Notes under the pieces: generated by a model
Told to the model about the DNA's origin: nothing
What the model saw: the letters and a program-made list of their open reading frames with translations, nothing else
Database searches by the model: none
Made by a program: the position numbers and the translations under genes
Part shown: piece after piece, positions 3,158 to 7,843 of the stretch
Position numbering within the stretch: position 1 is the stretch's first letter
Layout of the letters: each line of letters begins with the position of its first letter
DNA from: Candidatus Woesearchaeota archaeon
Lineage (GTDB): Archaea; Nanobdellota; Nanobdellia; Pacearchaeales; GW2011-AR1
Direction: 5' to 3'
Length of the DNA stretch: 37,982 nt
Assembly (NCBI GenBank): GCA_964416245.1
Contig: CAYQDG010000004.1
Location: 1-37,982, forward strand

Positions 3158-4138
3158 ATGGAAGAAAAAAAGGCAAGAGAAAATATCTTGAGAGAATCTG
3201 AAGAAGTAGAGGGAGTTTCGATTAAAGGATATGATTTTAATGAAGGCATTGATTTTGAAAAAATTTTGGATAGTTATTTTTCTATGGGAATTCAATCGAC
3301 TAATTTTTCTAAAGGAATTGAAATTATCAATGAAATGATAAGGGAGAAAGCTTACATTTATTTGGGTTATACTTCTAATATGGCAACTTCAGGTATGAGG
3401 GAAATAATAAGATATTTGGCAGAGCATAAAAAAGTAAATGTTATGGTTACGACTTCTGGAGGAATTGAAGAAGATTTTATTAAGTGTCTGGGAGATTTTA
3501 AGTTAGGGAATTTTAGAGCAATTGGAAAAGAATTAAGAGAAAAAGGAATTAATCGTGCAGGAAATGTTTATGTTCCTAATTCTAGGTATTGTCGTTTTGA
3601 GGAATTTATTATCCCTATTTTTGAAGAATTTTATGAAAGGCAAAAGAAAACAGGGAAGGTTGTTTCTGCAAGCGAATTAATTTGGAAGATGGGAGAGAAA
3701 ATTAATAATGAAAAATCAATTTATTATTGGGCATGGAAGAATAAAATTCCTGTTTTTTGTCCTGCAATTACTGATGGAAGTATAGGAGATATGATTTATT
3801 TTTTTAAATCTAAATATCCTGATTTTTTAGTTGACGTTTCTGAAGATATTTGGAAAATGAATAACACAACTTTGAGCCCTGATAAAACAGGAATTATAAT
3901 TTTGGGCAGTGGAGTTATCAAACATCATATTTGTAATGCTAACATGTTCAGAGATGGGGCAGATTATGCAGTTTATATAAATAGTTCTCCGGAATTTGAT
4001 GGTTCAGATTCGGGAGCATTGCCTGAAGAAGCAGTTAGTTGGGGAAAAATTCGTCCAGACGCAAAAAAAATTAAAATTTATTCTGAAGCTTCTTTGGTTT
4101 TTCCTTTAATTGTAGCTAGAACTTTTGCTAAAAGATAG
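3158..4138 (+). CDS. dys: deoxyhypusine synthase
   Basis: Family-typical motifs: TTSGGIEEDFIKC, NRAGNVYVPN, CPAITDGSIGDM, GSGVIKHHICNAN, EFDGSDSGA and EAVSWGKI. Confidence 0.9.
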   Translation: MEEKKARENILRESEEVEGVSIKGYDFNEGIDFEKILDSYFSMGIQSTNFSKGIEIINEMIREKAYIYLGYTSNMATSGMREIIRYLAEHKKVNVMVTTSGGIEEDFIKCLGDFKLGNFRAIGKELREKGINRAGNVYVPNSRYCRFEEFIIPIFEEFYERQKKTGKVVSASELIWKMGEKINNEKSIYYWAWKNKIPVFCPAITDGSIGDMIYFFKSKYPDFLVDVSEDIWKMNNTTLSPDKTGIIILGSGVIKHHICNANMFRDGADYAVYINSSPEFDGSDSGALPEEAVSWGKIRPDAKKIKIYSEASLVFPLIVARTFAKR

Positions 4139-4190
4139 TATATTCTTGATTAATATAAAATTTATAAGTGGTGAGTATATTATATTTTTG

Positions 4191-4715: not shown

Positions 4716-5816
4716 ATGGCTAAGAAAAAAGATGATTCAGGGGAGTTGTTTTCGTCTCTTTCTGATTCTGCATTAGAAGGAAAAAAATTCGAGAAGGATT
4801 TTATAGATGTTTTGAAAATGGTTGCTCCTGGAACTAGTTTGAGAGTTGCTTTGGATGATTTGTTGAGAGCAAAGATGGGGGCGTTGGTTGTTTTTGATAA
4901 CGGGAGTGTTGATTCTTTAATTGAAGGAGGATTTAAAATTAATTCAAAATTTAGTCCTCAAAAATTAGTTGAATTGGCAAAGATGGATGGTGCTCTTGTG
5001 GTTTCAAGGGACTCCAAAGAGATTTTATCTGCAAATACTTTGTTAGTTCCAGATAGTACTATTTTTACTAGGGAAACTGGAACTAGGCACAAAGCTGCTG
5101 AAAGAACTGCAAATCAAGCAAATACTATTGCTATTGCTGTTTCTGAGAGAAAAAATAAAATTTCTTTGTATTATGGGAAAACTTATTATCAATTGGAAAG
5201 AAGTTCGGAAATTCTTCGTAGAGCTTCAGAAACCTTACAAATTTTGGAAAAACAGAGAGATCTTTTTGATGAGTTTTTGGATGTTTTAAATTCTTTGGAA
5301 TTACAAAGGAGTTCTAGCATAAATGATGTTTGTTATGTTTTGCAAAGAGCAGAAATAATGAAAAGAATTGAGGCTATTGTTCAAAGGTATTTAATTGAAT
5401 TGGGTCGTGAAGGGATGATTGTGAGAATGAGATTGAAAGAATTAACAAGTAGTGTTCAAAAAGAAGAAGAATTGATTTTGAAGGATTATTTTGGAAAAGA
5501 ATATCCAGATTATTTGGGAATTCTTGAAAAGATGGATTTTGATTTTTTGTTAGAACCATTAAACATCTCTCGTATGCTTTTTGAAGAATTACATGATAAA
5601 TCTATTTCTCCTCGAGGATTAAGGATTTTGGGTAAAACTAATCTTTTGGAAAGGTATGTTGATTTGTTAATTGGTAATTTTGAAAATTTGGATAAGATTT
5701 TATCTGCCAAAAATGAAAGGCTTTTGGAAATATTGGAGAGTGAAGCGATGGTTAGTTTCTTTAGAGAAGAAATTTATAATTTGAAGGAGAAAGTTAGTCT
5801 TGGTAGGAGTATCTAA
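4716..5816 (+). CDS. disA: DisA-type diadenylate cyclase (DNA integrity scanning protein, DAC domain)
   Basis: DAC-domain motifs GALVVF, DGALVVS and TGTRHKAAERTA. The ~360-aa length with helical and C-terminal domains is typical of DisA. Confidence 0.85.
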   Translation: MAKKKDDSGELFSSLSDSALEGKKFEKDFIDVLKMVAPGTSLRVALDDLLRAKMGALVVFDNGSVDSLIEGGFKINSKFSPQKLVELAKMDGALVVSRDSKEILSANTLLVPDSTIFTRETGTRHKAAERTANQANTIAIAVSERKNKISLYYGKTYYQLERSSEILRRASETLQILEKQRDLFDEFLDVLNSLELQRSSSINDVCYVLQRAEIMKRIEAIVQRYLIELGREGMIVRMRLKELTSSVQKEEELILKDYFGKEYPDYLGILEKMDFDFLLEPLNISRMLFEELHDKSISPRGLRILGKTNLLERYVDLLIGNFENLDKILSAKNERLLEILESEAMVSFFREEIYNLKEKVSLGRSI

Positions 5817-6083
5817 CCACCACTAAAGTGGATGCTCGCCGACACAGTCGCTTCGCATAATGGTTAGTTTCTTTAGAGAAGAAATTTATAATTTGAAGGA
5901 GAAGGTTTCTTTGGGAAGGAGTATCTAACCACCACTAAAGTGGATGCTCGCCGACACAGTCGCTTCGCATAATGGTTAGTTTTTTCAGGGAAGAGATTTA
6001 TAATTTGAAGGAGAAGGTTTCTTTGGGAAGGAGTATCTAACCACCGATAAATCGGAAGCTCATCCAAGCAGTGATTTTGAATA
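5748..6083 (+). repeat. three tandem 112-bp units, each the last 22 codons plus stop of disA and 43 nt of downstream sequence
   Basis: The units start at 5748, 5860 and 5972. All encode MVSFFREEIYNLKEKVSLGRSI*. The 43-nt tails of units 1 and 2 are identical, and the unit 3 tail differs at about 15/43 positions. Confidence 0.95.
5820..5831 (+). other. post-stop hairpin CCAC-TAAA-GTGG, repeated at 5932-5943 and as CCGA-TAAA-TCGG at 6044-6055
   Basis: A 4-bp stem with a 4-nt loop begins 4 nt after each TAA. Two base pairs covary between copies. Confidence 0.6.
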
Positions 6084-6110
6084 GTTTTAAGAAAAATAAT
6101 CTTCATTACC

Positions 6111-6139: not shown

Positions 6140-7180
6140 ATGTTAACGGAAAAGGAAAATGAAGAAATTAGGGAGCATTTAGATAGAGCACAAAATCCCT
6201 TATTTTATTTTGATAATGATCAGGACGGACTATGCAGTTATTTATTGATTAGGCGGTTTTTGGAAAGGGGAAATGGGGTGCCTGTTAAAACTTCTCCATT
6301 GGATATGAGTTATTTTAGAAGAATTAATGAATTTGAACCAGATTATGTTTTTATTTTAGATCAGCCTTCGGTTTCAACTGAATTTTTTGAAGCATTGCAT
6401 GAAAAAAATATTTCTATTGTTTGGATTGATCACCATGATAATGATTTAGACACTATTCCAGATTATGTAAATTATTATAATCCTTTGTTTAATGAAAGCA
6501 AAACGAATGAACCGGTTGTTGATTTGTGTTATAGATTTGTTAATAGGAAAGAAGATTTGTGGTTGTTAATTGTGGGATGTATTGCTGACAAATATATGCC
6601 TGAAGAATATTCGGATTTTTTGAAAAAGTACCCTGATTTGGGGATAAATTCTAAGAGTCCTTTTGAAATTTTGTATAATTCAGAAATTGGAAAAATGTCT
6701 CGGATGATTGGAACGGGTTTGAAAGATAGAACGAGTTTAGTTATGAAGATGATTCGTTTTTTAATCAAAGCTAGAAATCCTTATGAGGTTTTGGAAGAAC
6801 AAATTGATAACCATGAGATGCATAAGAATTTTAATAAAATTGATGAGAGATTACAAAAATATTTGAAAAAAGCAAGAGAAGAATATAGTGAAGGAAAAGT
6901 TTTGTTTTTTACTTATTCTGGTGCAACGAGTATGAGTGCAGATATTGCAAATAGGTTAAGTCATGATTATCCTGGAAAAGTGATTGTTGTGGCTTTTATT
7001 CGAGAAGGCCGTGTTAATTTATCTATTAGAGGAAAAGGAGTTAGAGAAAAAGTTTTGAAAGTTTTGGAATTTTTTCCTTTATCTACAGGTGGAGGACATG
7101 AAGATGCTGTTGGAGCGCAGATTGATTCTGATCAATTGGAAGAGTTTGAAAAGAAATTGAAGGAAGAGATTGGAGATTAG
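6140..7180 (+). CDS. DHH/DHHA1 family phosphoesterase (RecJ/NrnA-like)
   Basis: Motifs DNDQDGLCS, DHHDND and, in the C-terminal DHHA1 region, GGGHEDAVGAQ. Confidence 0.8.
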   Translation: MLTEKENEEIREHLDRAQNPLFYFDNDQDGLCSYLLIRRFLERGNGVPVKTSPLDMSYFRRINEFEPDYVFILDQPSVSTEFFEALHEKNISIVWIDHHDNDLDTIPDYVNYYNPLFNESKTNEPVVDLCYRFVNRKEDLWLLIVGCIADKYMPEEYSDFLKKYPDLGINSKSPFEILYNSEIGKMSRMIGTGLKDRTSLVMKMIRFLIKARNPYEVLEEQIDNHEMHKNFNKIDERLQKYLKKAREEYSEGKVLFFTYSGATSMSADIANRLSHDYPGKVIVVAFIREGRVNLSIRGKGVREKVLKVLEFFPLSTGGGHEDAVGAQIDSDQLEEFEKKLKEEIGD

Positions 7181-7340
7181 GGATTGGGAGTTGTTTAAAT
7201 AAAATTAATCTCCTGAAAGTAATAAATGAAAAATAGTAATACTTAAAAATAATTAATTCTTAATTTTTTTATGAGAAGTAAATCATTAGTCTATAATTGG
7301 AATTTTTGTATGGACTTAGTTATTACTTCTATTAAAATAG

Positions 7341-7382
7341 CTTAATTTAATTCAAGTTCTCCTAAACCTGAATTAAATTAAG
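7341..7382. repeat. perfect 14-bp inverted repeat with a 14-nt loop
   Basis: CTTAATTTAATTCA (7341-7354) pairs with TGAATTAAATTAAG (7369-7382). Confidence 0.8.
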
Positions 7383-7737
7383 AAAATGCTTCTAGTTAAT
7401 TTAGGTTGTAAGGATGAATACGAATTTGTTAAGTTTAACTGAATTTCGGTTGAAAAAATGGAACAAAAACAAATGGAAAAAAGACTCAAAATCAAAGATT
7501 TTGGTCAATAGTCCTCGGTGAACCTGCGGTTTTTCCATAAAACAAAAATGGAACAAAAACAAATGGAAAAAAAAGATGTAGAGAAGGAATTGAGTTCTTT
7601 ACTGGCAAGAACATTGTCTTGGGAAGATGAACTTAATTCTATAATAGGAATGGATGAATAAAGAATGAAATTGAAGGGATTCATGAAGGCGTTAGTGTCT
7701 AATATGGAATTTGGAATGTGAAATTTTGCAAATTTGA

Positions 7738-7775
7738 TTAGCCCACCCAACCCTCCCAATTGTGCAAAATTTCTA
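7738..7775 (-). other. repeated intergenic element containing a canonical G-quadruplex motif (GGGAGGGTTGGGTGGG on the minus strand, 7742-7757)
   Basis: There are four G3 tracts with loops of 2 nt or less. The flanks TTAGCCCACCC...CCCAAT..TG.CAAAATTTCTA are shared with 34245-34283. Confidence 0.7.
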
Positions 7776-7843
7776 GATTTAGTTAAGGTAAAGCAAGTTT
7801 GGAAAGAGGTTTGTCAAAAAATATTTTAATCATTGAATAAAAA

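Follow-up and report, generated by a model that had tools for sequence, protein, structure and literature searches.

Results

Tandem copies of the disA 3′ end

We analysed a 37,982-nt stretch of contig CAYQDG010000004.1 from a Candidatus Woesearchaeota archaeon, referred to here as the window, and our subject is a short tandem array located at the 3′ end of its disA gene. This gene (window positions 4,716–5,816, plus strand, as for the array and the gene downstream of it) is a 366-residue open reading frame (ORF) composed of DAC, DisA-linker and HhH regions (Pfam PF02457/PF10635), and its product matches T. maritima DisA (PDB 3c1y) at E=2.6e-55. The array is composed of three head-to-tail units of 112 bp (Tandem Repeats Finder period 112, 2.7 copies, score 526; direct-repeat family D2), which start at 5,748, 5,860 and 5,972. 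Each unit contains ATG, 21 codons and TAA, encoding MVSFFREEIYNLKEKVSLGRSI, followed by a 43-nt tail. The repeat begins exactly at a conserved Met codon. DisA residues 345–356 align with the last helix region of the 3c1y chain, and the repeated 22 residues correspond to the final helix region of the C-terminal HhH. We identified no gene-end duplication in the window besides this array.

The units were compared at three marker segments: a 5′ coding segment, either a (TTC TTT AGA..GAA) or b (TTT TTC AGG..GAG); a 3′ coding segment, either A (AAA..AGT CTT GGT) or B (AAG..TCT TTG GGA); and the tail, either alpha or beta. Unit 1 (5,748–5,859) is a-A-alpha, and its coding part (5,748–5,816) is the translated disA 3′ end itself. 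Unit 2 (5,860–5,971) is a-B-alpha, a recombinant of the two parental types a-A-alpha (type 1) and b-B-beta (type 2); it is also present in contig L010 and, partly, in L001 (contigs used for comparison carry L numbers throughout). Unit 3 (5,972–6,083) is b-B-beta, its tail runs on into native downstream DNA, and the arrays of L003 and L009 close with an identical unit. Units 1 and 2 differ by 6 nt in four codons (AAA/AAG, AGT/TCT, CTT/TTG, GGT/GGA) and have identical tails; units 2 and 3 differ by 4 nt in four codons (TTC/TTT, TTT/TTC, AGA/AGG, GAA/GAG) and at 15 of 43 tail positions. All 10 coding differences between units 1 and 3 are synonymous (100%). Only 17% of single substitutions are synonymous, and in simulations of 10 random substitutions the peptide was retained in 0 of 500,000 runs. 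The repeat search and the unit comparison thus confirm what an earlier note, made from the letters of this DNA, had described: three units encoding an identical 22-residue peptide, four plus four codon differences that amount to 10 nt, all of them synonymous, and a third tail divergent at about 15 of 43 positions. Its description of unit 2 as a mosaic of units 1 and 3 was likewise borne out.

The array varies in copy number on a near-clonal background

An exact look-up of the DisA protein retrieved 12 contigs from JGI, ENA MEGAHIT k141, NCBI and Logan assemblies. Across eleven contigs of independent assemblies with identical DisA, the number of units is 1, 2, 3 or at least 4. A single a-B-beta unit is found in L002, L004 and L005, and two units in L003 and L009 ([a-A-alpha][b-B-beta]) and in L006 ([a-A-alpha][a-B-beta]), compared with [a-A-alpha][a-B-alpha][b-B-beta] in the window. 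L010 carries at least four units ([a-A-alpha][a-B-alpha][b-B-alpha], then one beginning ATGGTTAGTTT...) and breaks inside the array, and L001, L007 and L008 end within it, where haplotypes diverge or the repeat recurs. The background of this variation is near-clonal, with 5 variable sites in the 3 kb upstream (11 contigs) and 0 in disA.

These arrays are real haplotypes and not an artefact of the assembly graph. Each junction of the window array recurs in other assemblies, and the junction from alpha into ATGGTTAG is present in assemblies from at least six samples, made with different assemblers and including k=141, which exceeds the 112-nt unit. The markers that define the recombinant units (B then alpha; alpha then a then B) lie no more than 60 nt apart, inside a single k-mer. 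Because of this spacing and the recurrence of the junctions across assemblies, arrays of three or more units are not a path artefact. Also, the single-copy combination (disA upstream region, a, B and beta) cannot be derived from the window array. We therefore rejected the suggestion of the earlier note that an assembler had collapsed strain variants into an array, given the independent MEGAHIT k141, JGI, NCBI and Logan contigs with 1, 2, 3 or at least 4 units.

Two parental versions account for all units

Every unit on every contig is a mix of two alleles at the three segments, with 0 private mutations. All haplotypes can be derived from [a-A-alpha][b-B-beta] through unequal crossing-over or conversion, and the single a-B-beta unit is a contraction product of this pair. 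The crossovers lie in two invariant stretches, at unit positions 25–44 and 58–74; as they fall within units, they are attributable to general homologous recombination. The array is therefore young and has been shuffled through unequal crossing-over of a-A-alpha and b-B-beta. The lack of private mutations indicates that its extra copies have not yet decayed and that it changes much faster than by point mutation.

The coding parts of types 1 and 2 are 15% divergent, and over the whole 112-nt unit the divergence is ~22%. Pairwise disA distances among the window, L064, L060, L014 and L065 are 15–20%, and judged by these distances, the two parental types appear as divergent as related species. The AGT-to-TCT and CTT-to-TTG differences require multi-step paths, which points to long separate histories. 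Because all units reuse the same two alleles, the 10 synonymous differences already existed between the parental versions. The earlier note had concluded from the synonymous-only divergence that every copy was shaped by selection on the peptide. Our analysis supports such selection in the past but not at the place where each copy now sits, since the differences are old differences of two gene-end alleles and no unit contains a new mutation.

A second region of exchange was found in the DHH-DHHA1 gene downstream of disA (6,140–7,180), which is preceded by a TATA-like sequence, TTTATATAA, near 6,110. Positions 7,079–7,141 of this gene carry 10 nt differences within 62 nt (seven synonymous codons plus D->E and E->G), and the rest is identical; the window, L006, L012 and L013 share one haplotype, and L002 and L004 the other. 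The patch bears the signature of short-patch recombination with a diverged relative. DNA from such relatives thus enters this population in small pieces.

The tail is a structured two-hairpin module

The first alpha tail (5,817–5,859) contains hairpin 1, CCACTAAAGTGG (5,820–5,831), followed by a 30-nt GC-rich core, GGATGCTCGCCGACACAGTCGCTTCGCATA (5,830–5,859). The second alpha tail (5,929–5,971) has its core at 5,942–5,971. The beta tail (6,041–6,083) shows the same two-hairpin architecture with compensatory changes. With ~58% GC, the tail is an outlier in this AT-rich genome (26–34% GC). There are no runs of T in alpha and two T4 runs (oligo-T, terminator-like) in beta.

Comparison of four tail types (window alpha, window beta, L014 and L064) identified two shared hairpins with compensatory changes in 5 of 15 pairs. 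In this comparison 93% of cells were paired, versus 17–36% in controls with slid partners, and each hairpin-1 type was seen with each hairpin-2 type (four combinations). The tail is thus a conserved, structured two-hairpin module. In addition, a CTAACCA motif (5,813–5,819) lies across the stop codon and is the inverted partner of TGGTTAG at 5,749–5,755, 5,861–5,867 and 5,973–5,979. Around each alpha tail, the CTAACCA/TGGTTAG stem closes a three-way junction, into which the 59 nt between units fold (z = −3.7 on one strand and −3.6 on the other; none of 200 shuffled sequences was as stable). The covariance models of Rfam 15 gave no relevant match to the tail, whether gathering scores or a cut-off of E≤10 was applied, and no tRNA or tmRNA was detected there by ARAGORN.

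The core is dispersed among gene 3′ ends

The core is an imperfect palindrome (ATGC-TCGC-CGAC-ACA-GTCG-CTTC-GCAT) that is GC-rich and extragenic at all five loci where it was found. In one metagenome scan, the exact 27-mer of the core was present on five JGI contigs belonging to the same sample series as the window species. Two of these, L056 and L059, carry it at the disA locus of a related species (species 2, below). In L057 (Ga0102926_1010997, 1,608–1,737) it lies at the 3′ end of the aEF-2 gene, where the last seven codons, the stop codon, 12 nt and the core form 65 nt present in two identical copies; aEF-2 relatives of other species (L066, L067 and L078) have neither core nor duplication and correspond to empty sites. 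In L055 (Ga0102934_1004465, 1,823–2,169) the core is contained, in reverse orientation, in a 91-nt insert in the trailer of a tRNA-Leu gene, and this insert is followed by an 18-nt imperfect copy of the tRNA 3′ end. Next to it, tRNA-Arg carries a different GC-rich, two-hairpin insert of 45 nt, followed by a 19-nt imperfect copy of its own 3′ end. L058 contains the core in the 3′ flank of an ERCC4-nuclease gene, also in reverse orientation. The core is 100% identical at four unrelated loci and also across species whose disA genes are 20% different, and we conclude that it is a dispersed element associated with gene-end duplications.

No further copy of the core was present elsewhere in the window or in ~400 kb of related loci. 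Scans of IMG/VR for a viral attP gave 0 matches for the core, a degenerate core or the disA-end coding pattern. A 32-mer with window-specific flanks had 0 matches among 185k GTDB species representatives, a pattern too specific for this purpose, as it also missed L014. By Pfam, no recombinase or transposase genes were identified in the 38-kb window or on L055, L057 and L058. The literature yielded no paper on the core sequence or on Pacearchaeota palindromes. A resemblance of the core to EF-1alpha G-domain DNA (19 of 30 positions identical) was judged a probable chance match.

As a separate observation on aEF-2, the gene in L067 (5–2,154), a metagenome-assembled genome (MAG) of species 2, is called as two consecutive ORFs of 486 and 217 residues, and database entries for DPANN EF-2 often cover just a C-terminal piece of 180–300 residues. 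These split calls could reflect a split gene, a frameshift or contig fragmentation.

Gene ends and extra copies in related genomes

The disA end is single and free of duplication at ~35 of 41 GTDB loci. Both codon sets of the array occur as native single-copy disA ends in relatives, judging from L060 and L069, which have A-like ends (GTT AGT TTG GGT), and L065, which has a B-like end (GTC TCG CTG GGA, TAG stop).

Species 2 (L014, L056 and L059), whose DisA is 84% identical to that of the window, has an A-like gene end, then tandem 51-nt copies of the hairpin module, and then the last 22 codons once more, in a B-like version. In L014, this second copy starts with AGG in place of ATG, carries an L->S change and stops at TAG; GGAAGACGAAATTTTG comes next, and the sequence downstream is the same as at the single-copy site of L065. 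Because copy 2 of L014 is orthologous to the empty site of L065, it is the resident end, and the A-like end and the modules were inserted in front of it. The second copy in L070, another strain of species 2, is A-like, also starts with AGG and shows four synonymous differences. The 51-nt units of species 2 number from two to at least six and include one variant unit with TGATGAA (L014 4,104–4,346; L056 8,780–9,070; L070–L077); most assemblies break at this array, where a 100-N scaffold gap also lies. Elsewhere on L056 (1–286, at the contig end), the 3′ flank of a minus-strand gene contains a 143-nt tandem duplication of about two near-identical copies.

In L064 (88% identical, TARA), the gene end and a 43-nt tail are followed by only eight codons, KVSLGRRI*, without ATG. 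All eight nucleotide differences between this remnant and its gene end are synonymous (P ~8e-6). As the remnant is untranslatable, a purely synonymous pattern does not require translation of the copy.

The disA-end duplication recurs in a second clade (L022, L023 and L024), where structures of the form X-tail-X′ have AT-rich, terminator-like tails, no core and 7–10 duplicated codons. The copy in L024 carries a 1-nt indel and hence a frameshift, and its tail pairs perfectly (11 bp) with the gene end ahead of a T-rich tract. In the clade of the window, the junction is always G|GTTAGT (three species), either at codon −22 (ATG GTT AGT) or at codon −8 (AAG GTT AGT), and GGTTAG at the junction is the inverted complement of the CTAACC that spans the stop codon. 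The earlier note had held that decay of the extra units in related genomes would count against its reading, and such decay was partly observed, in the form of AGG starts, truncations, the frameshift and the L->S change.

Surroundings of the array

The genes neighbouring disA encode TFIIE-alpha, S17e, deoxyhypusine synthase and EndA, and its DisA relatives carry the labels Pacearchaeota, Nanoarchaeota or Woesearchaeota. The adjacency of disA and the DHH gene is kept in nearly all relatives, and the DHH-DHHA1 family includes c-di-AMP phosphodiesterases. In L060, a GNAT acetyltransferase gene (3,603–4,145) lies between the two and starts 2 nt past the disA stop codon, which we regard as a further sign that the disA/DHH junction is a rearrangement hot spot. 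In L012 (ERZ27257089 k141_187885, 1–202), a structural variant from one sample, the DHH promoter is preceded by sequence that bears no relation to the disA array; this sequence joins at window position 6,102, beginning 19 nt downstream of the array, and contains a divergently oriented ORF with no detectable homologue.

Several other features were recorded. A long conserved hairpin, GAAATTTTG..GATTAGCCCACCC..CCCWCCC..CAAAATTTC, has three compensatory pairs and no Rfam match (window 7,720–7,773; L014 4,425–4,480; L065 3,610–3,720); it lies 3′ of the DHH gene in the window, but in L014, L065 and L070 it separates disA from the DHH gene. A perfect 29-nt direct repeat, AAAAATGGAACAAAAACAAATGGAAAAAA, is present at 7,454–7,482 and 7,544–7,572, 90 nt apart, within a 660-nt ORF-poor spacer (7,181–7,843) that is partly conserved in species 2. 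The TFIIE-alpha-like protein (ORF 632–1,540) has Lys-rich tandem coding repeats in its C-terminal tail (1,351–1,533; periods of 15–63 nt), and L042 (144–270) contains a 42-nt repeat in three copies at the matching place.

Discussion

The structure at the disA 3′ end of this Pacearchaeota-type DPANN archaeon is a real, variable tandem array reshuffled from two old gene-end alleles. We consider it somewhat probable that it was built as set out below and that its extra units are untranslated passengers in the 3′ untranslated region (UTR). According to this proposal, types 1 and 2 would each have evolved as a working disA end in a separate lineage, and their coding parts would differ only synonymously because each version was a working end. 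The two versions may have been set side by side by an illegitimate or microhomology join at GGTTAG or, alternatively, by an event directed at the 3′ end of the core. The allele so formed, a duplication plus an insert, could enter single-copy genomes via ordinary homologous recombination, with the duplicated gene end providing both homology arms; the inserted block would then be A-alpha-b or A-alpha-a, which is exactly one permuted unit. Unequal crossing-over and gene conversion, for which the haplotypes give direct evidence, have since expanded, contracted and shuffled the array. Unit 1 alone would be translated, with the remaining units carried as passengers in the 3′ UTR, and the alpha tail may carry a fresh copy of the dispersed palindromic core.

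Several observations fit this proposal poorly. We found no donor genome whose own single-copy disA end is exactly a-A-alpha. A-type codons are confined to first units, a bias not expected from simple random unequal crossing-over, although just seven arrays have been observed. The copy numbers come from short-read contigs, several of which end within the array. The A-parts of the window and L014 are approximately species-level apart, yet their cores are identical at 27 of 27 positions, and this identity needs a separate explanation, be it constraint, conversion or mobility. Finally, the duplications at three loci stop exactly at the 3′ end of the core with little or no microhomology (L057), and in this respect they look more enzyme-directed than random.

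The closest precedent for two ends of one gene standing in series is E. coli icd, where, with prophage e14 or phage 21, the displaced resident end (icdC) is described as persisting downstream (PMC13626634; Hill et al. 1989 as cited there). The icd and icdC ends differ mostly synonymously, and recombination between them gives “parallel synonymous changes” (PMC13626634). The disA locus is similar in that incoming DNA supplies its own gene 3′ end, so that the gene stays intact and the resident end lies untranslated downstream. It differs in that a 15-kb prophage and an integrase separate the copies in icd, whereas here they are separated by a 43-nt hairpin module with no recombinase found, and in that at least four copies can be stacked, with crossovers inside the repeat. 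The range from one to at least four copies and the mosaic units on a clonal background also resemble minisatellites; unlike minisatellites, the founders here are two alleles ~22% diverged, and the array overlaps a coding end.

Going beyond recombination between old alleles, the hairpin module with its core may, quite tentatively, be a previously undescribed minimal mobile unit of DPANN archaea, carrying neither cargo nor enzyme and landing at the 3′ ends of disA, aEF-2 and tRNA-Leu. A site-specific nick or join at ...GCATA would then duplicate a variable stretch of gene end, and the allele would spread by homologous recombination. In a related but stricter form, which we regard as unlikely, the units themselves would be copies of the attachment site of a minimal non-autonomous module that is recognised in trans by a recombinase, nickase or HUH enzyme. 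Such a module would land at gene 3′ ends, bring or create a copy of the gene end and stack in tandem, in the manner of integrative elements or of integron cassettes without cargo. The shared G|GTTAGT junction at codon −22 or −8 in three species and the perfect conservation of the 30-mer across loci and species are consistent with it, as is the fact that the disA and aEF-2 duplications both end exactly at ...GCATA. It is opposed by the lengths of the duplicated stretches (18, 21, 35 and 82 nt), which are unlike an enzyme-set target duplication, by the crossovers within units (a-B, B-alpha), which show general homologous recombination, and by the AT-rich, coreless duplications of L022, L023 and L024. 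No integrase or transposase was found in the 38-kb window or on the core-bearing contigs, and neither the core nor a disA-end attP was present in IMG/VR.

Comparison with known mobile systems gives a similarly divided picture. Integrative elements typically insert at tRNA 3′ ends (Williams 2002; She et al. 2001). As in partial tRNA repeats of the attL/attR type, a direct repeat of a conserved gene 3′ end flanks an insert at the loci described here; the tRNA-Leu and tRNA-Arg of L055, with partial 3′-end copies after hairpin inserts, have exactly this classical att signature. At disA itself, a repeat of the target 3′ end flanks the insert and the incoming copy keeps the gene intact, with L065 as the empty site for L014. 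Unlike attL/attR elements, the inserts are 45–91 nt long and without genes, and at disA and aEF-2 they form tandem arrays. Only 43 nt, without cargo, lie between the disA copies, Pfam gave no recombinase in the window or on the core-bearing contigs, and no free or viral attP form was found in IMG/VR. Of the three explanations in the earlier note, the one in which elements had brought their own version of the gene end comes closest. It is supported by the foreign-type end and tail in front of the resident end of L014 and by the same architecture at tRNA-Leu, tRNA-Arg and aEF-2, but no integrase, cargo or free element was found, and crossovers inside units point to general homologous recombination more than to repeated site-specific integration and excision.

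Among extragenic palindromes, the core is most comparable to repetitive extragenic palindromes (REPs) and bacterial interspersed mosaic elements (BIMEs). REPs are known join-points of tandem duplications and stabilise mRNA 3′ ends. Like them, the core is a short extragenic imperfect palindrome, GC-rich relative to its genome, that lies past stop codons in either orientation, at several loci and sometimes in tandem. Unlike them, it is known from about five loci instead of hundreds per genome, its host is archaeal, and the adjacent gene end is duplicated too; no RAYT transposase was identified for it.

Integrons offer another partial parallel. The units combine a short ORF with a ~59-nt structured site and have RYYYAAC-/GTTRRRY-like bounds, compensatory structure and no adjacent integrase, as in attC clusters (CALINs), which have been reported in Nanoarchaeota MAGs (PMC9668308). 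Read as attC boundaries, ATCTAAC fits R″ and GTTAGTT fits six of seven positions of R′, and the span between them has a significant single-stranded DNA fold on both strands. However, the peptide is identical in all “cassettes” here and corresponds to the end of the gene next to them, and the internal crossovers indicate homologous recombination instead of recombination at G|TT. Both strands fold as a three-way junction with two local hairpins but with no L″/L′ pairing and no extrahelical bases, and we therefore rejected an integron attC site. The integron-like interpretation is thus partly supported by the boundaries, the 59-nt site and the CALINs but fails because the attC architecture is absent.

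Other systems were considered and set aside. In a CRISPR or neo-CRISPR array only one part of the unit would be expected to repeat, whereas both parts repeat here, and no cas genes were found. A diversity-generating retroelement, with its template and variable repeats, does not fit, as the differences are not specific to adenines. The fold contains no 3-4-3 motif of a bulge-helix-bulge intron, though the window encodes EndA, and the motifs required for a hammerhead or C/D-box RNA are absent. Counts of GGTTAG in the window are at expectation and do not indicate an enriched recognition motif.

It is improbable, in our assessment, that selection maintains the array as an RNA device in which hairpin number or alternative CTAACCA/TGGTTAG pairing would tune disA mRNA stability or read-through into the DHH gene, with copy-number variation as a contingency switch. 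The compensatory conservation of the hairpins would suit such a role, as would the recurrence of disA-end duplication in two clades with disA and DHH as neighbours and, in L024, the perfect pairing of tail and gene end before a T-rich tract. So would the distribution of T runs (none in alpha, two T4 in beta), from which the whole array is probably 3′ UTR. An RNA function would not, however, keep codon identity; single- and multi-copy alleles coexist on the same background with no sign of a sweep, and most of the GTDB loci lack the duplication.

We likewise disfavour, and consider very improbable, the suggestion of the earlier note that units 2 and 3 are independently translated 22-residue micro-ORFs that mimic the DisA C-terminal helix, under purifying selection in place. 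All extra units in the window species do keep ATG, 21 codons and TAA with synonymous differences only, starting exactly at the conserved Met codon. This ATG is explained by the junction motif ATG|GTTAGT, however, and the corresponding codon is AGG in L014 and L070 and AAG, at codon −8, in L064. The units lack a start signal of their own, as the GC-rich 43 nt upstream of the ATGs contain no TATA-like or Shine-Dalgarno-like sequence, and the ORF is not conserved in relatives, whose copies are truncated (L064, L022, L023; 7–10 codons in the second clade), frameshifted (L024) or nonsynonymous (L014). The untranslatable remnant of L064 is equally synonymous-only, strains with a single copy exist, and the peptide, the last HhH helix region, is no known stand-alone module. 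That an assembler concatenated strain variants of a single-copy gene end is hardly credible, given the recurrent junctions, the closely spaced markers and the analogous structure in independent assemblies of a related species, even if the samples contain several haplotypes, four contigs (L001, L007, L008 and L010) break in the array and the copy number of the window rests on a short-read assembly.

We conclude that the structure is genuine and uncommon, a hot spot of recombination that can largely be explained, and that its synonymous-only divergence has an ordinary population-genetic explanation. A caution follows for similar repeats: copies that differ only synonymously can be stacked orthologous alleles and not copies selected in place, and a naive dN/dS analysis of them would falsely indicate function. 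The locus also brings to light a new object of study: a small, structured element, GC-rich although its genome has 29% GC, which does not vary between loci and species and is tied to duplications of gene 3′ ends. If the core is mobile, few known mobile units would be smaller, and none would have been described before from Pacearchaeota-like archaea; its behaviour would amount to “homing without a homing enzyme”. Beyond the core, the locus is a record of very fast short-patch recombination in a natural DPANN population, where gene flow is little characterised, with exchange between lineages in divergent patches of ~60–110 nt within otherwise clonal genomes.

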